From assembly GCF_013167455.1 (NCBI RefSeq), contig NZ_CP038328.1: a DNA stretch of 64,000 nucleotides. One strand, given 5' to 3'. The notes beneath the pieces are model-generated. The model worked only from the letters and a program-made list of their open reading frames with translations. It was not told the origin of the DNA and made no database searches. Source of the stretch: Escherichia coli O157:H7 (GTDB lineage Bacteria; Pseudomonadota; Gammaproteobacteria; Enterobacterales; Enterobacteriaceae). Positions 38,757 through 57,647 of this stretch are shown here, piece after piece; position 1 is the first letter of the stretch, and each line of letters opens with the position of its first letter. The position numbers were made by a program, and so were the translations under genes.

Positions 38757-42158
<3,402 letters not shown>

Positions 42159-42215
42159 TCATGCTCCATAAACGATAAAACCGCCCGGAGGCGGTTTCAC
42201 ATAAAACATTTTGCA

Positions 42216-42887
42216 TCAGCGACCAATCACCACAACCTGACCACCGTCCCCTTCGTCTGCCGTGCTGATCTCTTGAGAAACCACGCGTGACCCCACGCGC
42301 ATTTCACCGTACAGAACCGGCAGAACATTGCCCTGGGCAACCATGTTATCCAGTGAGGAGAAATAGGTGTTCTGTTTGCCGTTATCCGTTGTCTGTGTAC
42401 GGGGAGTTCTGGCTTTCGGTGCCAGCATCTGCGCCACACCACCGAGCACCATACTGGCACCGAGAGAAAACAGGATGCCGGTCATACCACCGGCCCCAAT
42501 GGCTGCCCCCCATGCTGCAAGGGTGGCTCCGGCGGTAAAGAATGATCCGGCAATGGCGGCAGCCCCCAGGACAATCTGGAATACGCCACCTGACTTGGCC
42601 CCGGCGACTCTGGGAACAATATGAATCACAGCGCCATCAGGCAGAGTCTCATGTAACTGCGCCGTTAACCCGGACGTGCTGACGTCCCGCCCGGTAATCC
42701 GTACCTGATACCAGCCGTCGCTCAGCTTCTGACGAAACACCGGGAGCTGTGTGGCCAGTGCGCGGATGGCTTCAGCCCCCGTTTTCACACGAAGGTCGAT
42801 GCGGCGGCCAAATCGTTGCAAATCCCCGTAAAGGCAGATGCGCGCCATGCCCGGTGACGCCAGAGGGAGTGTGTGCGTCGCTGCCAT
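42216..42887 (-). CDS. I: Tail assembly protein I
   Basis: 223 aa MAATHTLPLASPGMARICLYGDLQRFGRRIDLRV... Confidence 0.9.
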   Translation of the reverse strand: MAATHTLPLASPGMARICLYGDLQRFGRRIDLRVKTGAEAIRALATQLPVFRQKLSDGWYQVRITGRDVSTSGLTAQLHETLPDGAVIHIVPRVAGAKSGGVFQIVLGAAAIAGSFFTAGATLAAWGAAIGAGGMTGILFSLGASMVLGGVAQMLAPKARTPRTQTTDNGKQNTYFSSLDNMVAQGNVLPVLYGEMRVGSRVVSQEISTADEGDGGQVVVIGR

Positions 42888-43528
42888 TTGTCGGTATACC
42901 TCTCTCGTTTGCTCAGTTGTTCAGGAATATGGTGCAGCAGCTCGCCATCACCACAGTAAATGGCGGCATGATTCGGCACCGATGAACCAAAACAGCACAG
43001 CAGCACATCGCCCGGTTGTGCTGATGACAACGGCACCTGATACAGCCCTGTGGCCTCCAGATTATCCAGATAGAGATTCTGACCGTGACGCCACCAGTCA
43101 TCCTCGCGATGAAAATCCGGCATCTCAATCCCCGCCAGATGATAAGCATCCCGGAACAGCGTGTAACAGTCCGTCACCCCGTGCTCAAAGCGCCGCCCGG
43201 TGAGATGCGGCACACAGCGGAACTTATGAATCGTCCCCCGGCAGACCAGCCACCACGGCAAATCACTCTGCACCTGCAGCCGCCGGTCGGCCTCACTCAG
43301 CCAGGGCAGACCACCGGGGTGGCTGTGGACCAGCGCCACAATCTCACCCTGCATTTCTGCCTGCAGCCAGTCTTCCGGCGACATACGGAAATACGCCTCC
43401 GGCTCACCGGAGATATTCACGCAGGGGAAATATCTTTCCCCCTCCGGCGTGCTTACCACGAAGCCGCACGACTCCGCTGGCGCACATCGCCGGGCGTGCG
43501 CCAGAATCGCTGATTCTGTCTGTGTCAT
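42785..43528 (-). CDS. K: Tail assembly protein K (NlpC/P60 plus JAB/MPN-like); true start may be internal
   Basis: MTQTESAILAHARRCAPAESCGFVV...HSHPGG (JAMM-like) and Cys-His peptidase segment; overlaps I. Confidence 0.85.
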   Translation of the reverse strand: MTQTESAILAHARRCAPAESCGFVVSTPEGERYFPCVNISGEPEAYFRMSPEDWLQAEMQGEIVALVHSHPGGLPWLSEADRRLQVQSDLPWWLVCRGTIHKFRCVPHLTGRRFEHGVTDCYTLFRDAYHLAGIEMPDFHREDDWWRHGQNLYLDNLEATGLYQVPLSSAQPGDVLLCCFGSSVPNHAAIYCGDGELLHHIPEQLSKRERYTDKWQRRTHSLWRHRAWRASAFTGICNDLAAASTFV

Positions 43529-43533
43529 GGGAT

Positions 43534-44232
43534 TTACTGCGAAAGTTTGTTAATGGAAAGGAAGCCGCCAAAGTTGCCGACGTTATTGCGGAACTTACAA
43601 CCGCTCAGGCATTTGCTGCATTTATCCTTCGTGATATCGGACGTTGGCTGGTCATATTCATCCGCGACCGCCGGACCGTGATAACCGCACTCATCGCCGC
43701 GATAGGTCCAGGTGCAGGTGTTGGCCAGCATGATACGTCCCGGAAAAACAGCGCCGTCCGTTTCCGTCGGCGTGGACAGTACAAAAGAGGCACTCACCGC
43801 GCTCAGTTCGCTGCACTGCTCAATGCGCCAGCGGCTGATCACCTCCTGCTCCGGATCGGCGTCACTGTTTCCGTTGACGAAGTTCACCGCATCCAGAAAA
43901 CGGGCGTAAACCTTACGCCGGACCACCGTTCCGCCGACCAGACTCTGCAGATCTTCCGCCATCCCGGTGACCATACCGTACAGGTTAGAAACCGTCAGCG
44001 TGGGGCGCGTACTGGTGCCTTTGCCATTCAGTTCAAAACCACTCCCCTGAATGGGATACGGCTGATACTGTCGCCCCTGCCAGGTGACCGGCTCACCTTT
44101 TTCGTTCTGCTCATTACAGAAAAAATAACGTTCTCCACCGACCTCTGTCAGATCGATTTCCCAGAGCACCACGCTGGCCGACTGCTCCGCACGGGTGCAT
44201 TCATTCAGTGTTTCCTGCCGGATATCCTGCAT
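43534..44232 (-). CDS. L: Tail tip assembly protein L
   Basis: 232 aa MQDIRQETLNECTRAEQSASVVLWEIDLTEVGGERYFF... Confidence 0.93.
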   Translation of the reverse strand: MQDIRQETLNECTRAEQSASVVLWEIDLTEVGGERYFFCNEQNEKGEPVTWQGRQYQPYPIQGSGFELNGKGTSTRPTLTVSNLYGMVTGMAEDLQSLVGGTVVRRKVYARFLDAVNFVNGNSDADPEQEVISRWRIEQCSELSAVSASFVLSTPTETDGAVFPGRIMLANTCTWTYRGDECGYHGPAVADEYDQPTSDITKDKCSKCLSGCKFRNNVGNFGGFLSINKLSQ

Positions 44233-44561
44233 CAGTTCACCACCTGTTCAAACTCTGCGCTGAACTCAACACGCAGCATACTGACCCGCGACGACCATTT
44301 TGCGCAGGTCACCTTTATCTGCCGCCACTCATAAGGCGGCGTCCACAGAAAGGCCTTCCAGCCCCCGAGCTCAGCCAGAAACGACTCAAGCGCCGTGGCC
44401 TCCCAACGGGGAACAGAAAGCGTCACGCTGTACGTTTTCAGGTCGGCATTCAGCCCGGCAGGCGCTCGCTGGGAATAGCCATCACCAAAGCGCACCTTTC
44501 TTACGGAAGGGGCCGAAGCCACATCCATACCGGGTTTCACTTTCCAGCGGAAGGTTTTCAT
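44232..44561 (-). CDS. M: Tail tip protein M
   Basis: 109 aa MKTFRWKVKPGMDVASAPSVRKVRFGDGYSQRA... Confidence 0.93.
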   Translation of the reverse strand: MKTFRWKVKPGMDVASAPSVRKVRFGDGYSQRAPAGLNADLKTYSVTLSVPRWEATALESFLAELGGWKAFLWTPPYEWRQIKVTCAKWSSRVSMLRVEFSAEFEQVVN

Positions 44562-47107
44562 CGTCCACCTCCGGAGAACAGACCACCATCGCGCATCTGC
44601 CCGGTCACAACATCCATTGCCGCCTTACGGGCTACGTCATAAACCGCCTTCAGTGCCTGTGGCCCTATCTGACCGTTCGTGCCGTCGTTGTTAATCACCA
44701 CATGGTTATTCTGCTCAAACGTCCCGGACGCCTGCGACCGGCTGTCCGCCATGCTGCCCGGTGTACCGACATAACCGCCGGTGGCATAGCCGCGCATCAG
44801 CCGGTAAAGATTTCCTACGCCAATCCGGCTGGTTGCCTCCTTCGTGAAGACAAATTCACCACGGTGAACAATCCCCGCTGGCTCATATTTGCCGCCGGTT
44901 CCCGTAAACCCTCCGGCCGCAAAATGGAATTTCGCCGCAGCTGCCTGAATGGCTGTACCGCCTGACGCTGATGCGCCGCCGCCAATGGCGCTGCCTATAC
45001 TTCCGACAATCCCCACCATTGCCTGCTTAAGCAGAATTTCTGTCATCATGGACAGCACGGAACGGGTGAAGCTGCGCCAGTTCTGTTCACTGCCGGTCAG
45101 CATCGCCGCCATATTCTGTGCAATACCATCAAAGGTCTGCGTGGCAGCACTTTTAACCTGCGACATACTGTCCGTGGCGCTCTCTTCCCACTCACTCCAG
45201 CCTGACCTGAGGCCTGCCATCCAGCTCCCGCGAAGCTGGTCTTCAGCTGCCCAGGTCTTTTTCTGCTCTGACATGACGTTATTCAGCGCCAGAGGATTAT
45301 CGCCATACTGTTCCTTCAGGCGCTGTTCCGTGGCTTCCCGCGCTGCCTGCCGGTCAGTCAGCCCCCGGTTTTTTGCATCAATGGCGGCCCGTTTTGCCCG
45401 TTGTTGCTGTGCGAATTTATCCGCCTGCTGTGCCAGCGCGTTCAGGTGCTCCTGATAGGTGACCTTGTCGCCAAGTACAGCCAGCTGGCGTTTGTACTCC
45501 AGCGTCTCGTCTTTATGCGCCAGCAGGGATTTCTCCTGTGCGGACAGCTGGCGACGTTGTGCCGCCTCCTCCAGTACCGCGAACTGACTTTCTGCCTTCC
45601 ACAAATCCCGGCGCTGCTGGCTGATTTTCTCATTCGCTCCGGCATGCTTCTCCAGCATCCGGAGTTCTGCCTGAAGCGTCAGCAGGGCAGCATGAGCACT
45701 GTCTTCCTGACGATCGCCCGCAGACACCTTCACGCCGGACTGTTTCGGCTTTTTCAGCGTCGCTTCATAGTCCTTTTTCGCCGCCGCCATCAGCGTGTTG
45801 TAATCTGCCTGCAGGATTTTCCCGTCTTTCAGTGCCTTATTCAGTTCTTCCTGACGGGCGGTATATTTCTCCAGCGGCGTCTGCAGGCGTTCGTAAGCCT
45901 TCTGCGCCTCTTCGGTATATTTCAGCCGTGACGCTTCGGTATCGCTCTGTTGCTGCGCATTTTTGTCCTGTTGACTCTGCTGCTCAGCCTTCTTTCGGGC
46001 GGCTTCAAGCGCAAGACGGGCCTTTTCACGATCATCCCAGTAACGCGCCCGCGCTTCATCGTTAACAAAATAATCATCCTTGCGCAGATTCCAGATATCG
46101 TCCGCTTTCTTAAACGCGGCCTCTGCCTTAATCAGCATCTCCTGCGCGGTATCAGGACGACCAATATCCAGCACCGCATCCCACATGGATTTGAATGCCC
46201 GTGCTGTCCTGTCTGCCCAGGTTTCCAGCGTGCCCATGTTCTCTTTCAGGCGGCGGGTCTGGTCATCAAACCCTTTCGTCGCGGCCTCGTTCGCCGCCTG
46301 CAATGCCCCGGCTTCTTCGCCGGAACGCTGCAACTGAGCAACATACGCAATCTGCTCCGCCGTCACGTTATGGAACTGGCGCGCCATCGCTGTCAGCCCC
46401 GACGTCGGGTCAGTGGTCAGCTTCCCGAAGGCTTCAGCGACCTTGTCCACCTCCACGCCTGATGCAGAGGAGAAACGCGCCACACTCTGGCTGATGGACG
46501 CAATCTGAGCCTCACCGCTTACCCCCGCCTTAACCAGTGCGCTGAGTGACTCGCTGGTCTGGTTAAACGTCAGCCCTGCCGCCTGCCCGGCTCTGGACAG
46601 GACCAGCATACGATCTGCCGTCAGCCCGGCCTGATTGCCGGAAAGGACCAGCGTTTTGTTGAAATCGGACAGGGTTGAGTTGCCCTGATACCAGGCATAC
46701 GCCAGCGCACCGGTCGCCACCGCCAGCGAGGTGGCCCCCACCATCGGCAGGGTGATCGCACCGGCAAGCCCCCGGAACATGGGGATCATCCCGCCGAAGG
46801 AGTCCTTCACCTGCCCCCCCTGTTGCAGCAGGATCAGCCACGGACTTTGCCCACCTGCAAGCTGCGTGGCCACGTCAGTGAACTGCGCAGGCAGCATACG
46901 CATGGCGGCTTTATACTGCCCGACGGAAATTCCCGCTTTCTGTGCAGCCAGCGCCTGCCGGCTCATCGACTGTTCAACGACTGCCGCTGTTTTTTTCGCA
47001 TCACTTTCCGTACCGGAAAAATGACGCCTGACTCTGGCCATCTGCTCGTCAAATCTGGCCGCATCCAGACTTAAATCAACGACCAGATCGCCTACCGGTT
47101 CAGCCAT
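44558..47107 (-). CDS. H: Tail tape measure protein H
   Basis: 849 aa, coiled-coil rich with Gly-rich C-terminus; between T and M. Confidence 0.93.
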   Translation of the reverse strand: MAEPVGDLVVDLSLDAARFDEQMARVRRHFSGTESDAKKTAAVVEQSMSRQALAAQKAGISVGQYKAAMRMLPAQFTDVATQLAGGQSPWLILLQQGGQVKDSFGGMIPMFRGLAGAITLPMVGATSLAVATGALAYAWYQGNSTLSDFNKTLVLSGNQAGLTADRMLVLSRAGQAAGLTFNQTSESLSALVKAGVSGEAQIASISQSVARFSSASGVEVDKVAEAFGKLTTDPTSGLTAMARQFHNVTAEQIAYVAQLQRSGEEAGALQAANEAATKGFDDQTRRLKENMGTLETWADRTARAFKSMWDAVLDIGRPDTAQEMLIKAEAAFKKADDIWNLRKDDYFVNDEARARYWDDREKARLALEAARKKAEQQSQQDKNAQQQSDTEASRLKYTEEAQKAYERLQTPLEKYTARQEELNKALKDGKILQADYNTLMAAAKKDYEATLKKPKQSGVKVSAGDRQEDSAHAALLTLQAELRMLEKHAGANEKISQQRRDLWKAESQFAVLEEAAQRRQLSAQEKSLLAHKDETLEYKRQLAVLGDKVTYQEHLNALAQQADKFAQQQRAKRAAIDAKNRGLTDRQAAREATEQRLKEQYGDNPLALNNVMSEQKKTWAAEDQLRGSWMAGLRSGWSEWEESATDSMSQVKSAATQTFDGIAQNMAAMLTGSEQNWRSFTRSVLSMMTEILLKQAMVGIVGSIGSAIGGGASASGGTAIQAAAAKFHFAAGGFTGTGGKYEPAGIVHRGEFVFTKEATSRIGVGNLYRLMRGYATGGYVGTPGSMADSRSQASGTFEQNNHVVINNDGTNGQIGPQALKAVYDVARKAAMDVVTGQMRDGGLFSGGGR

Positions 47108-47534
47108 ACCGGACTCCTCCTGCGATCCCTTCTGATACTGTCATCAGCATTACGTCATCCTCCGTCATGTCCGCCACATCCGGGGAAGCGGGGATAACTT
47201 CATTCCCGTCCGGGCCAAAACGAACGCCTCCAGCAAGCCCTGCCGCTTTCTGCATCAGCACATCATCTTCAGGCTCTTCGTCAGCCTCACGCCGGTTCAG
47301 CAGACTGAAATCCAGCGGATGCATATCCGGATCGCTGAAAAACAGGCTGAGCACGGTGTACGTCAGCCCGGAAAAGTGCATATCCAGCAGAACATCATGA
47401 AAATAATGGGTACTGTAAAAGCGGTGCCAGTCGGCATACTCCGTGGATGACATCCCGGCAAGCATGGCACGCCAGTCGGGTCGCCCCATCTCGCGCGCCA
47501 GTTTCAGGGCAAAACTCAGCTCACCGTCGAACAC
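47100..47534 (-). CDS. T: T reading frame of tail assembly chaperone, expressed as a G-T fusion by -1 frameshift
   Basis: ORF-track frame (V)FDGELSFALKLAREMGRPDWRAMLAGMSSTEYADWHRFY...; entered from G via the slippery site. Confidence 0.85.
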   Translation of the reverse strand: MFDGELSFALKLAREMGRPDWRAMLAGMSSTEYADWHRFYSTHYFHDVLLDMHFSGLTYTVLSLFFSDPDMHPLDFSLLNRREADEEPEDDVLMQKAAGLAGGVRFGPDGNEVIPASPDVADMTEDDVMLMTVSEGIAGGVRYG

Positions 47535-47938
47535 TTTCCCGCAGAAACAGGCTCTGCAGGCCCGGCGTCCTCTGCCTGTTCAGGGGCATCATTCACCACA
47601 AACTCATACATACCGGACAGCCGGTACACCACGTTTTCAGCATGAGAAATTGCCTCCGCGGGCCAGGTGGTAAGCACTTCCTGCTCAATCTGTTTAACGG
47701 CTTCATTCATGGACGGCATCTGCGTCTTCTTCGGATGGTTATGCCACAGGGACATCGCCACCACAAAAGCGCCGGTTCTGATGGCGTCTTCCACAGTAAA
47801 CTTCCGGTTGCTGTCTGACTCCGCCTGTTCTGCCTGCCGTTTCATCAGGGCGAGATGCTCAATACGCTGCAGGGCTGACAGTTCAGAAAGCGTGACGGTC
47901 ACGCCGTTATGTTCAAATGATTCGGTTTTCAGGAACAT
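47516..47938 (-). CDS. G: Tail assembly chaperone G
   Basis: 140 aa MFLKTESFEHNGVTVTLSELSALQRIEHLALMKRQ... Confidence 0.93.
   Translation of the reverse strand: MFLKTESFEHNGVTVTLSELSALQRIEHLALMKRQAEQAESDSNRKFTVEDAIRTGAFVVAMSLWHNHPKKTQMPSMNEAVKQIEQEVLTTWPAEAISHAENVVYRLSGMYEFVVNDAPEQAEDAGPAEPVSAGKCSTVS
47534..47540 (-). other. Programmed -1 ribosomal frameshift slippery heptamer G-GGA-AAG for G-T fusion
   Basis: Minus strand reads GCG GGA AAG TGT in the G frame; the -1 frame continues as the T ORF. Confidence 0.8.
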
Positions 47939-47953
47939 CGCTGATTCTCCGGA

Positions 47954-48724
47954 TTAACTGGCGGTGACGTTGATTTCTGCAACCGCAGCAAACTCACCAT
48001 TACCGGATACGACCGGAATGTTGACCTTGCCTGCAGCAACACCTTTCACGGTGATGGTCATACCACTGACCGACACGGTGGCTTTTGTTTTATCCGCAGA
48101 CACCGCACGGAAGCTCTTGTCGGTTGCGCCTTCCGGCTGGAATGCCACGGTCAGCGTCGTGCTCTGCCCTTTCACCACCGAGGTGCTGGCAGGCGTCACG
48201 GTCATGCCGGTTGCCGCTGTTACCGTGCTGCGATCTTCTGCCATCGACGGACGTCCCACGTTGGTGACTTTCACCGTGCGGGTGATCACTTCCTTCGCCG
48301 TCACCGCCTTACCGATACTGCTGACCCAGCCGCGGAACACATCGACCGTGCCGTTCGGGAAGCGGATTTTATAGGCACGGGTATCACCTTCATTAAACCA
48401 CGCCAGCAGCGCCTGCTGCCCCTGCTCTCCGGGCATCCACGCCAGCGTGAAGCTGGTATCTCCAGCGGATTTCTGCCCCTGTCCGGTCGCGGCCCAGTCC
48501 GCATCTTCATCATCGAGATAACTGTCGTCATAGGACTCAGCGGTCAGTTCGCCGGGCGTCAGGTCTTTAACCTTTGCCAGACGCGACCAGTCATTGTCTG
48601 AAAGCGGGTTTGCATATGGGTCGCCGTTCCCGTTATAAACCCACAGTGTGGTCCCGGCCCCTTTCACCGGTGCCAGAGGATTTGGTGTTGGCATATCGTC
48701 CTCACATTTCATAGGTAATGACAT
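47954..48724 (-). CDS. V: Major tail protein V (with C-terminal Ig-like domain)
   Basis: 256 aa [32 protein letters not shown]... Confidence 0.93.
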
Positions 48725-49097
48725 AAGTCAGATCGGCTGAACTCCACAGGCCCGCATCATCGTCGCGCCGGTAGTCATAGCCACTGGCCACCATACTGGT
48801 GATCAAATCTGATAGTGCCGGGATATCGCTCATCACCGGATAAATCCGGGACTCCATCCACGCATCCAGCTCTGAATCCGGCACCTGAGCAGGCAGGAAA
48901 ACTTCGATATGCAGCTCCGCCTGCCAGGTATCGCTGTCCAGCTCTTCGCCCGTGTATTCAGCGCCGGTGAGATAAACGGCAACTGCCGGAAAATCCGCCT
49001 CATCAAAAACAGCGGGGCGACCATCAAAAAACGTCGCCCCGGTGTCATGCTTCTCCAGTGCATCCAGTACGGCTGCACGGAGTTCAGTATGTTTCAT
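48702..49097 (-). CDS. U: Tail terminator protein U
   Basis: 131 aa [43 protein letters not shown]... Confidence 0.93.
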
Positions 49098-49672
49098 CGC
49101 TTTATTACCATTCTCAGTTGATGCTGCAGCGCATAGCCCAGCTCTTTCGGAAGACGTTCACGCCGTATCCGCTCAATATTCTGTTTAAACGCCGTGGTCA
49201 GCGGCACCGCCATCGGGATTTTCACCACATCAATGGGGTAACGGTTTTTCCCGGCCACACGCTGCATGACATGCCACCGGCCATTTTTCAGTTGCTGAAT
49301 AAACGCGCCGGGAATACGACGGTTTCCCACCACAAGCACGCTGCCGCCACCTTTCAGGGATGAACGCTGCCCCTTTTTACGACGCCTGCGTCGGGACAGG
49401 ACAACCCGCGCGTTACCCAGCTTGATTACGGGCAAATCCCCCCGGTTAACCTTGATTCTGGCCTGCGGATTTTTAACCGTGGCCCTTTTCAGCCTGGCCC
49501 TTTCCTTTACCAGTTTCCGGCGTACTCTTGTCTCACGGGCAACCTGTGACGCCGACTGCGATATCGCGGATGAAGCAACGCGGTTAATGGCCATTGCTGA
49601 CGCACCAGGCACCGCCGTTTTGCTGATACGACTGAGGTTTTCAACGGCCTGCTCAAGACCTTTTATGGCCAT
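49094..49672 (-). CDS. Z: Tail completion protein Z
   Basis: 192 aa, lambda gene order. Confidence 0.9.
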   Translation of the reverse strand: MAIKGLEQAVENLSRISKTAVPGASAMAINRVASSAISQSASQVARETRVRRKLVKERARLKRATVKNPQARIKVNRGDLPVIKLGNARVVLSRRRRRKKGQRSSLKGGGSVLVVGNRRIPGAFIQQLKNGRWHVMQRVAGKNRYPIDVVKIPMAVPLTTAFKQNIERIRRERLPKELGYALQHQLRMVIKR

Positions 49673-49683
49673 ACATCCCCCCT

Positions 49684-50037
49684 TCAGCGACGACGGTTAA
49701 CGGCAGGCGGTACGCCCCGCCCAAGCCAGAGATGACAGCTTCCGCCATCATCCGTCGAAATCCGGTCTATCCAGAAGTTTTCCTCACCGATGGTCAGCGT
49801 GTCTCCACGCCGCAGTTGCCGCACATCATCAGTCCGGACAAACAGGGACGGGCTGGAGCCTTCAACACGCACGCCCTGTCCGGCATAGCTGATATTTTCA
49901 GGGTCATCAAAAACACCACGTATTACTGCGCCGGACTGCTCACCGGATGTCATGGTGGCTGACGTTCCCATGTACCCGCGTATCGTTTCATCGGCGCGGG
50001 CAATGGCAGCATCGAACAGGTTATCGAAATCAGCCAC
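49684..50037 (-). CDS. FII: Head-tail joining protein FII
   Basis: 117 aa MADFDNLFDAAIARADETIRGYMGTSATM... Confidence 0.93.
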   Translation of the reverse strand: MADFDNLFDAAIARADETIRGYMGTSATMTSGEQSGAVIRGVFDDPENISYAGQGVRVEGSSPSLFVRTDDVRQLRRGDTLTIGEENFWIDRISTDDGGSCHLWLGRGVPPAVNRRR

Positions 50038-50048
50038 AGCGCCTCCCG

Positions 50049-50447
50049 TTATTGCATTCTGGCCAGGCCGCGCTCTGTCATTTCGGCTGCCACACCGGCA
50101 GAGACACGAAACGCCGTTCCCGGCAGCACAAATGCCACAGGTTCATCCCGCGTGACGTGAAGTGCATCAGTATGCAGCTTCACCAGTGCCACGACCGTGA
50201 CCAGTTCAGACGTATCCAGAATCACGGTATCCGGCTGCGCTGATCCCACCTCATTTTCATGTCCGGTCAGCACATTTTCCCGGCTGAGAGGGGTGTCCTG
50301 ACCGGCAGTTTCATCCGTGTCATCAAGCTCCTCTTCCAGCTCTGCCACACGGAGCGCCAGTTCTTCTTTCGTCCCCGTCAGGCTGACATCACGGTTCAGT
50401 TGTTCACCCAGCGAGCGGAGACGGGCAATCAGTTCATCTTTCGTCAT
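50049..50447 (-). CDS. FI: DNA packaging protein FI
   Basis: ORF-track protein contains MTKDELIARLRSLGEQLNRDVSLTGTKEELALRVAEL...; start trimmed to give 132 aa. Confidence 0.9.
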   Translation of the reverse strand: MTKDELIARLRSLGEQLNRDVSLTGTKEELALRVAELEEELDDTDETAGQDTPLSRENVLTGHENEVGSAQPDTVILDTSELVTVVALVKLHTDALHVTRDEPVAFVLPGTAFRVSAGVAAEMTERGLARMQ

Positions 50448-50488
50448 GGACTCCTCCACAGAAAAACAATGGCCCCGAAGGGCCATGA

Positions 50489-51514
50489 TTACGCCAGTTG
50501 TACGGACACGAACTCATCAGGGTCAGCCAGCAGCATCAGCGGTGCTGACTGAATCATGGTGAACTCACGCGCCGGATCGCCGGTGGTCACCCAGTTTTTC
50601 GGGTAACGGGCAGAGGCGTTAATGCCTTCGCGCTGTGCGTCCGCATCCTGAATGCAGCCATAGGTGCGCAGACCGCGTGCCTGAGTGTTCCCCAGCACCA
50701 TCGTGTTGTCCGGCAGGAAGTTCTTTTTGACGCCGTTTTCCACGTACTGTCCGGAATACACGACGATGGCCACATCGCCATACATTCCCTTATAAGACAC
50801 CGCTTTGCCCAGGTCTTTTACCGCTGTCTCCAGTTCGGAATGAGAGCCGCGACGGGTATCCAGCTTCTCCCTGACGGCTTTGAAGGAACGGAACAGCGCC
50901 CAGCCTTTCGGGTCAAACACGATGATATTCACCACGCCGCTGGCGTTCAGCGCGTAGGCTTCGATATCGTCGGTCGGGTCATACGTGGACTTGTCACGCT
51001 TGCTCCACTCCGTGCCGCCGGACTGCGTGATGTTGTTCGCCGCACTGCGGCCCATATCCACCTCAACCGGATCGAAGGCTTCACCGGTCATGGTGTATTT
51101 GCCCTTGAGCACGGCAGAAACTGCCTGCATCTCTTCGACCTGAGCAATGGCCAGCTCTTCGTCACGCATGTTCTGCATGATGATGCGACGGCGGCGGTAA
51201 GCCGGGTCCGCCAGATTCTGCGGATCTTCATCCGGCAGGCGACGCAGGGTCATCTGCGGATTCACTTCATGCTTCGGCTTGACATATCCCGGCGTAAATT
51301 CAGAGGTGGAGCCGCCACGGGAACGGATAACCTCACCAGAAACAATCGGCGAAACGTACAGCGCCATGTTTACCAGTCCCGGAATTTGTGAGAGATAGAC
51401 TTTCTCCGTGGTGAAGGGATAGCTCTCACGGAAAAAGAGACGCAGAAACAGCGGATCAAACTTAAATTTCTGCTCATTTGCCGCCAGCAGTTGGGCGGTT
51501 GTGTACATCGACAT
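50489..51514 (-). CDS. E: Major capsid protein E
   Basis: ORF-track protein contains MSMYTTAQLLAANEQKFKFDPLFLRLFFRESYPFTTEKVY...; start trimmed to give 341 aa. Confidence 0.95.
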   Translation of the reverse strand: MSMYTTAQLLAANEQKFKFDPLFLRLFFRESYPFTTEKVYLSQIPGLVNMALYVSPIVSGEVIRSRGGSTSEFTPGYVKPKHEVNPQMTLRRLPDEDPQNLADPAYRRRRIIMQNMRDEELAIAQVEEMQAVSAVLKGKYTMTGEAFDPVEVDMGRSAANNITQSGGTEWSKRDKSTYDPTDDIEAYALNASGVVNIIVFDPKGWALFRSFKAVREKLDTRRGSHSELETAVKDLGKAVSYKGMYGDVAIVVYSGQYVENGVKKNFLPDNTMVLGNTQARGLRTYGCIQDADAQREGINASARYPKNWVTTGDPAREFTMIQSAPLMLLADPDEFVSVQLA

Positions 51515-51569
51515 AAAAAAATCCCGTAAAAAAAGCCGCACAGGCGGCCTTTAGTGATGAAGGGTCAGG

Positions 51570-51902
51570 TTAAACGATGCTGATTGCCGTTCCGGCAAAC
51601 GCGGTCCGTTTTTTCGTCTCGTCGCTGGCAGCCTCCGGCCAGAGCACATCCTCATAACGGAACGTGCCGGACTTGTAGAACGTCAGCGTGGTGCTGGTCT
51701 GGTCAGCAGCAACCGCAAGAATGCCAACGGCAGCACCGTCGGTGGTGCCATCCCACGCAACCAGCTTACGGCTGGAGGTGTCCAGCATCAGCGGGGTCAT
51801 TGCAGGCGCTTTCGCACTCAATCCGCCGGGCGCGGTTGCGGTATGAGCCGGGTCACTGTTGCCCAGCGGCTGGTAATGGGTAAAGGTTTCTTTGCTCGTC
51901 AT
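51570..51902 (-). CDS. D: Head decoration protein D
   Basis: ORF-track protein contains [42 protein letters not shown]... Confidence 0.95.
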
Positions 51903-51911
51903 AAACATCCC

Positions 51912-53211
51912 TTACACTGGTGTGTTCAGCAAATCGTTAACGGCATCAGATGCCGGGTTACCTGCAGCCAGCGGTGCCGGTGCCCCCTGCATCAGACGAT
52001 CCAGCGCAGTATCACTGCGCGCCTGTGCACTCTGTGGTGCTGCGGCCAGAATGCGGCGGGCCGTTTCCACGGTCATACCGGGGGTTTCTGCCAGCACGCG
52101 GGCCTGTTCTTCGCGTCCGTGAGCCTCCTCACAGTTGAGGATCCCCATAATGCGGCTGTTTTCTGCCGCAACCGCAGCGGTGATCTGCGCGTTCACGTCC
52201 GGCTGCGCCGCGCTGGCGTTTTCGCCCTCCGTCGCTGGCACCACGCCAGTAACGTCAGCCTGCGAAGCAGTGGCTGAAACAGTTGTTGATTGAGTCTCTT
52301 TGGTCATTCGCCCTCCTGAGAGACGGGATTTACGTGCATCCAGTGCATCACGCATAACGGTGATCGCATCGGTGCTGTTGACAAGTTCATCAGCCAGTCC
52401 GGCATCAATGGCCTCCTGACCGCTGTACACTGCAGCCTCGGTATCCAGCACAGCCTGCACGGACAGGCCGGTATATGCCGACACCTTCTGCGCAAACATC
52501 CGGCGGGTTGCATCCATCCGGGACTGCAGTGTTTCCCGGACATCACCCGGTAGATGGCTGTAGGGGTTGCCATCCACCTTATGGCTGCCGCTGTAAATCA
52601 GCGTGATTTCCACGCCCTGTTTCTCCAGGGCAGCACCGTAATTACTGTGAGCCATCATGACGCCGATGGAGCCTGTCCGGGCGGTCTGCGTGACCAGACG
52701 CCGGGAGGCGGCGCTGGCAAGCAGCTGACCTGCACTGCAGTTCATGTCGTTGGCCAGCGCCCATACCGGTTTTATGTCTCGCACACGGGCGATGATGTCA
52801 GCACAGTCAAATGCTCCCGCCACCATCCCGCCCGGTGTGTCCATATCGAGCAGAATGCCGTCCACCATCGGATCGCTGGCAGCCTGTTGCAGACGGGCGA
52901 TAATGCCGTTGTAACCGGTCATTCCCGAATACGGCTGCAGCGCCCGCGTCCGGCTGACCAGCGTACCGGACACCGGCAGCACGGCGATGCCGTTCATGAC
53001 CTGATAACTCCGGGCCTGTCGTGGTCCGTCATCATCACCGGATAACGCCAGCGCCGCGGGTGCCTCTCCGGCAGTCAGGCTGTCGCCGGATACTGCATCC
53101 GTCAGGCGGCTGATCCCAAGCTGGCCTGCAAGCGCACAAAAGAAAACCCGCGCATAGGCGGGTTCAAGCATCAGCGGCTCATTAAAAGCCATGCTGGCAA
53201 TATGCGGGAGA

Positions 53212-53231
<20 letters not shown>
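51912..53231 (-). CDS. C: Prohead protease/minor capsid protein C (scaffold Nu3 nested in-frame in its 3' part)
   Basis: ORF-track protein contains (V)TAELRNLPHIASMAFNEPLMLEPAYARVFFCALAGQL...; start assumed at the GTG giving 439 aa. Confidence 0.85.
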
Positions 53232-56912
<3,681 letters not shown>

Positions 56913-56938
<26 letters not shown>

Positions 56939-57458
56939 TCAGCAACCCCGGTATCAGTTCATCCAGCGCGGCTGCTTTGTTCATGGCTTTGATGATATCC
57001 CGTTTCAGGAAATCAACATGTCGGTTTTCCAGTTCCGGAAAACGCCGCTGCACCGACAGGGGGATCCCGTCGAGAATACTGGCAATTTCACCTGCGATCC
57101 GCGACAGCACGAAAGTACAGAATGCGGTTTCCACCACTTCAGCTGAGTCTCTGGCATTCTTCAGTTCCTGTGCGTCGGCCTGCGCACGCGTAAGTCGATG
57201 GCGTTCGTACTCAATAGTCCCTGGCTGGAGATCTGTCTCGCTGTCCTGCCTCAGTTCTTCAACTTCCCGGCGCAGCTTTTCGTTCTCAATTTCAGCATCC
57301 CTTTCGGCATACCATTTTATGGCGGCGGCAGAGTCATAAAGTACCTCATTACCCTTGCCACCACCCCGCAGAACGGGCATTCCCTGCTCCTGCCAGTTCT
57401 GAATGGTACGGATACTCGCGCCGAAAATGTCAGCCAGCTGCTTTTTGTTGACTTCCAT
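56913..57458 (-). CDS. Nu1: Terminase small subunit Nu1
   Basis: 181 aa MEVNKKQLADIFGASIRTIQNWQEQGMPVLRGGGKGNEVLYDSAAAIKWY... Confidence 0.95.
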
Positions 57459-57635
57459 TGTTCATTCCACGGACAAAAACAGAGAAAGGAAACGACAGAG
57501 GCCAAAAAGCCCGTTTTCAGCACCTGTCGTTTCCTTTCTTTTCAGGGGGTGTTTTAAATAAAAACATTAGGTTACGGCGAAGAAGAACGGAAACGCCTTA
57601 AACCGGAAAATTTTCATAAATAGTGAAAAACCGCG

Positions 57636-57647
57636 AGGTCGCCGCCC
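57636..57647 (-). other. cosN: lambda 12-nt cohesive-end sequence (cosB lies between here and Nu1, cosQ on the other side)
   Basis: Plus-strand AGGTCGCCGCCC is the reverse complement of 5'-GGGCGGCGACCT-3'; surrounding sequence matches lambda cos as recalled. Confidence 0.85.

Follow-up and report, generated by a model that had tools for sequence, protein, structure and literature searches.

Does the overlap of tail genes G and T in a lambda-like prophage of Escherichia coli O157:H7 contain a working programmed −1 ribosomal frameshift site, of the kind that joins these two genes in phage lambda, and are both genes intact? An earlier note, made from the letters of the DNA, had placed a slippery heptamer shortly before the G stop codon and taken the tail assembly chaperone pair to be intact. 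We followed it up in a stretch of 64,000 nt of the O157:H7 chromosome (contig NZ_CP038328.1), referred to in what follows as the window. The site is almost certainly where ribosomes undergo programmed −1 frameshifting in the G/T chaperone genes of a lambda-like prophage in this chromosome. The G-T frameshift site is already known as the textbook lambda case, and the prophage is an ordinary one. Beyond the quality of annotation the significance is therefore slight: an intact chaperone pair and a recoding signal identical to that of lambda.

In lambda, gpG is the normal product of the region, and about 4% of ribosome passages over GGGAAAG end in a −1 shift (~96% versus 4%) that makes gpGT. Tail assembly requires a ratio of gpG to gpGT of ~30:1; the tape measure protein is bound by the G parts and the major tail protein by the T domain, and the virion contains neither gpG nor gpGT. 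The slip depends on tRNA-Lys carrying the mnm5s2U34 modification, and few heptamers in E. coli are as prone to shifting as G_GGA_AAG (PMC3296357, PMC5009743, PMC7618472, PMC4493119 for all of these statements). The lambda G/T frameshift was described by Levin, Hendrix & Casjens 1993 and by Xu, Hendrix & Duda 2004, 2013 and 2014 (as cited in PMC5009743); our statements on rate and mechanism are drawn from reviews and from Maynard 2012.

The first part of the window (1–24000) consists of host genes, among them cvrA, nhaB, dadA and umuC, and matches O157:H7 genomes at 100%. A lambdoid prophage lies on the minus strand and adjoins ompT. Window positions 39210–57647 correspond to lambda 18450–1 at 97% identity, with cos at 57647/57648, and positions 24207–62683 are 99.98% identical to NZ_CP066753, where the annotation shows every head and tail gene intact. 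Unlike phage lambda, the prophage copy resides in the O157:H7 chromosome.

Gene G (47516..47938, minus strand, including the stop codon TGA at 47516–47518) encodes the tail assembly chaperone gpG of 140 aa, as found from the list of open reading frames, its translation and a Pfam search. The protein matches PF06894 (Phage_TAC_2) with an E-value of 1.8e-59 and 199.5 bits (curated cut-off, 27), and the equivalent CDS at the 99.98% identical RefSeq locus is named ‘phage tail assembly chaperone G’. A Shine-Dalgarno sequence, GGAG at 47950–47947, stands 8 nt ahead of its ATG. Directly upstream is the gene for the major tail protein V, which forms the tail tube (47954..48694, minus strand; PF16461, E 2.7e-70, plus Big_2); its limits were carried over from the RefSeq annotation with an offset of +22683. 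Beyond T comes the gene for the tape measure protein H, of 849 aa (44558..47107, minus strand; open reading frame list, PF06791 with E 7e-70 and PF09718 with E 3e-21), whose first 8 nt overlap the end of T. On the minus strand the genes thus follow the order V–G–T–H, with the G/T pair between the major tail and tape measure genes. A search of the PDB by sequence with G/GT returned no matching solved structure.

The heptamer was located by direct reading and by pattern search. Up to the G stop the minus strand reads ...CCT GTT TCT GCG GGA AAG TGT TCG ACG GTG AGC TGA, in which GGGAAAG occupies 47540→47534 (feature 47534..47540, minus strand) in the 0-frame register of G, as G GGA AAG. Five sense codons follow it, for Cys-Ser-Thr-Val-Ser, and then the TGA at 47518–47516, so that the 0 frame translates to a protein with the C-terminus ...PVSAGKCSTVS. 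Read in the −1 frame from GGG, 146 codons run without a stop, translating as GKVFDGELSFALKLAREMGRPDWR...GGVRYG and ending at the stop codon 47102–47100; this T reading frame (47100..47540, minus strand) matches PF06223 (Phage_tail_T, minor tail protein T) with an E-value of 2.2e-14 and 54.1 bits (curated cut-off, 25.9). We constructed the fusion from residues 1–135 of G, a −1 shift at the heptamer and 144 residues of T, which gives a gpGT of 279 aa from a composite coding region at 47100..47938 (minus strand), with the junction peptide ...PVSAGKVFDGELSFALK; the same construction in lambda gives the same length. The span 47516-47540 in the earlier note covers the stretch from heptamer to stop exactly, on a strand (the minus) that it left unstated, and its spacing of five codons proved correct. 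Its further statements, that the −1 frame continues as T and that the chaperone pair is intact, hold at the level of sequence: the −1 frame meets no early stop, and neither open reading frame is interrupted.

The likeness to lambda that the note had also claimed is close. Over 1 kb the G-T region is 97.9% identical in nucleotides to phage lambda J02459, and around the heptamer the two agree at every position over 17 nt upstream and 40 nt downstream. Lambda and the prophage share the heptamer G GGA AAG, the next five codons and the TGA, as well as the V–G–T–H order, the T/H overlap and the 279-aa fusion. G plus T show 16 nucleotide differences. All six of those in the T frame are at third positions and synonymous, leaving the T part identical at 144 of 144 residues, and G is identical at 135 of 140, with five conservative substitutions (L59V, Q70K, T94A, N117D and T122A). 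H has 849 aa in the prophage, four fewer than the 853 aa of lambda H, and under the tape-measure rule this would mean a very slight shortening of the tail.

The heptamer as a bare string says little. GGGAAAG occurs in the window at chance frequency, 10 times on the two strands against 8.0 ± 2.7 expected from shuffles. Its setting is rarer. We filtered heptamers of the form XXXYYYZ by three requirements: the 0 frame had to be open for 80 codons or more upstream and to reach a stop at most 30 codons on, and the −1 frame had to be open for 100 codons or more. Only 2 of the 562 in the window, both strands counted, passed all three. G GGA AAG is the sole one with this architecture inside a real gene. 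The other, TTTCCCC at 43435–43441 on the plus strand, is antisense to tail gene K and outside any gene, and was dismissed. Since the bare heptamer is not enriched, the case for a frameshift site rests on its register, its architecture and its conservation.

Conservation was followed outwards from O157:H7. The kilobase around G-T is 100% identical in many E. coli O157:H7 genomes, and a match over at least 80% of its length is present in 3685 of 5426 complete E. coli genomes, making it about as common as any phage feature. Among 79 related loci in IMG/VR the heptamer is GGGAAAG in 77 and AAAAAAG in 2, and in all of them it stands five codons before the stop. Relatives at ~77% nucleotide identity (PhiR12_4 and an Stx2a phage) carry two substitutions within the 19-nt overlap of G and T, both silent in the T frame (Val, Gly) and both altering the G tail (Cys→Ser, Val→Ala). 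The same relatives retain the heptamer and tttctgcGGGAAAG, even though the C-terminal part of their G immediately ahead of the site has an unrelated sequence. A tblastn search with the 279-aa fusion found 185 phage records, and among the matches listed (40 of 185) all were split into two frames.

Further out the exact heptamer gives way to variants whose common core is AAAG or an A-run. In an alignment of 11 sequences AAAG is invariant down to ~37% protein identity. Other lambdoid phages (Stx1/Stx2 phages, ASU11, HK225/N15-like phages, phi80, Gifsy-1, Tritos) have the same gene order, an invariant AAAG core and a conserved N-terminus of T (LARExxRxDWRxML), and from a slip site at the G 3′ end onwards their −1 frame is likewise open. 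Three arrangements occur among their sites: A AAA AAG where lambda has its heptamer, G GAA AAG a codon ahead of the stop, and GCA AAA TAG / GGA AAA TAG, in which the stop follows the A run directly; the prophage in the window, unlike these, has the exact lambda version. The more distant relatives (HK225, phi80, Gifsy-1 and Tritos, together with 67 further IMG/VR loci), with G GAA AAG or an A-run that adjoins the stop, have about 111–124 open codons in the −1 frame and a conserved N-terminus of T. A site ending in A AAG is kept in distant relatives, with a −1 frame of 115–154 open codons. Sequence anatomy, homology, synteny and frame-specific conservation are established for the G-T site, and no feature of the sequence speaks against it.

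One related record departs from this pattern of open frames. In ‘Escherichia phage 204576’ (CP025907.1 5733–7267) the heptamer is intact and the G and T frames are both interrupted, the N-terminus of G being lost and T being open for 75 codons only; this may reflect either a decayed copy or sequencing errors.

Experiments on the identical site in lambda suggest how the prophage site would work, in slip, in rate and in the use made of the products. Most ribosomes would stay in the 0 frame through G and terminate five codons past G GGA AAG, giving gpG (140 aa). A small fraction, a few percent, would slip back by one base at the heptamer, where tRNA-Gly would re-pair from GGA to GGG and tRNA-Lys from AAG to AAA, and the slipped ribosomes would carry on in the T frame to give gpGT (279 aa). 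The frequency of the slip would set a ratio of gpG to gpGT of ~30:1 that correct tail assembly would need, and both proteins would be absent from the finished virion. The chaperone roles of the prophage G and T, taken over from the lambda literature, are likewise presumed. A site and flanks identical to those of lambda, together with a GTG that lacks a Shine-Dalgarno sequence, point to production of gpGT at a low percentage with no free gpT; T would then be expressed solely as the C-terminal part of gpGT.

Three other explanations of the locus can be weighed. The one that survives best is that the site is a fossil in a cryptic prophage, with a G-T signal retained by recent descent without current function. 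This is unlikely, though it has some evidence on its side: in another O157:H7 strain the same prophage lacks its early region, has a pseudogenised side tail fibre and has taken an IS insertion, and in the window too IS elements lie near the prophage end. Against it, in the 99.98% identical RefSeq locus the series of head and tail genes, from Nu1 to the gene for tail fibre assembly, is annotated throughout as intact CDSs, and G and T are of full length. The purely synonymous differences from lambda in the T frame, moreover, argue for purifying selection up to recent time. The fossil explanation bears in any case on the present use of the site, not on its identity as the G-T frameshift signal.

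The second is that T is an independent gene, started at the GTG at 47534–47532, with the heptamer incidental. The annotations favour it at first sight. Both GenBank J02459 and the RefSeq PGAP annotation draw T as a separate 144-aa CDS from this GTG, which overlaps the heptamer (47100–47534 in the window, minus strand; 24417–24851 in the RefSeq locus and 967–1401 in the J02459 segment), and our list of open reading frames starts T there too. Such a drawing is an annotation convention and not evidence, and the GTG makes a poor start: a Shine-Dalgarno sequence is missing within usable distance, the sole purine-rich stretch being the heptamer itself, 2 nt away, in contrast to G with its GGAG 8 nt upstream of the start. 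In relatives the GTG is not conserved (GTC, GCA and GCG stand in its place), whereas the AAAG slip core is, and the lambda literature describes gpG and the fusion gpGT only. An independent T is thus very improbable. Because T is annotated as a stand-alone gene, the 279-aa fusion is missing from the J02459 and RefSeq records; automated catalogues list a T protein that is probably never made alone, and do not list the fusion.

The third, that RNA polymerase makes the longer product possible by transcriptional slippage on the A run, can hardly be entertained: the AAA run within the site is all the support that we found, efficient transcriptional slippage requires much longer homopolymer runs than the three bases that are the longest here, and the proportion of gpG to gpGT in lambda depends on the modification of tRNA-Lys, which points to the ribosome (PMC3296357).

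Ribosomal slippage at the heptamer being the preferred explanation, a remaining question is whether RNA structure contributes to the signal. The 94 nt past the heptamer are predicted to form a GC-rich fold of −40.3 kcal/mol (z −2.28 against dinucleotide shuffles), in which a predicted hairpin (47526→47456, minus strand; RNA fold prediction), with the outer stem CGGUGAGC/GCUUGCCG, begins 8 nt downstream of the heptamer. In the alignment of 11 sequences, 84.5% of the hairpin cells were paired and six pairs had changed on both sides, a result reached by 0 of 500 shuffles. This covariation vanished with 59 distinct sequences: distant relatives, which do not keep the hairpin, paired in 51.8% of cells, versus 50.4% in a control slid by +1, and the slid controls had equal counts of compensatory pairs. 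In the lambda-type group 94.5% of cells are paired, but the sequences are almost invariant, hence uninformative on covariation, and within the lambda lineage conservation of the hairpin is inseparable from conservation of the protein. The hairpin is marginal against shuffles and also against synonymous-codon randomisation (z −1.8, p about 0.04–0.05), and of all 94-nt windows along the V–H mRNA 2.9% fold equally well or better. We accordingly rejected the hairpin as part of the frameshift signal. It is a doubtful proposal that in lambda-type phages the hairpin stimulates or tunes the rate of frameshifting as a lineage-specific element, and the literature cited here describes no stimulator or tuner of this kind. 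Levin et al. are said to have found no requirement for a simple downstream structure.

Other features of the window were noted in passing. Within the host part, two copies of an IS3-family element (766–2080 and 5796–7105), ~95% identical to IS1203 and inverted with respect to each other, flank ~3.7 kb in a layout that resembles a composite transposon. Near ompT the window has a 2.4-kb insertion (28301–30743) relative to phage PhiR26_1 and strain PV15-279; it corresponds to an IS66-family ISEc8 (tnpA, tnpB and a 512-aa transposase at 28338–29876) and sits in a remnant of tail-fibre-assembly sequence. From the tail fibre genes to ompT, at ~31031–34410 on the plus strand (placed via the RefSeq annotation, offset +22683), there is non-phage cargo consisting of genes for a SAM-dependent methyltransferase, a general stress protein, two ferritin-like proteins and a manganese catalase.

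Toward the 3′ end of gene J, at ~38774–39210 on the minus strand, the nucleotide sequence ceases to resemble lambda and PhiR26_1. The break falls in the C-terminal part of the tail tip protein, at lambda ~18450 (J, 15505–18903), and the loss of similarity suggests a different receptor-binding domain.

Strain PV15-279 carries a 99.8% identical copy of the prophage next to icd (NZ_AP018488 1494889–1535889, compared with window 34577–62053). In that copy the early region is deleted, the side tail fibre gene has an internal stop and IS1203 has inserted; set beside the window, it indicates that the same prophage type occupies different loci in O157:H7 and is found there in different states of decay.
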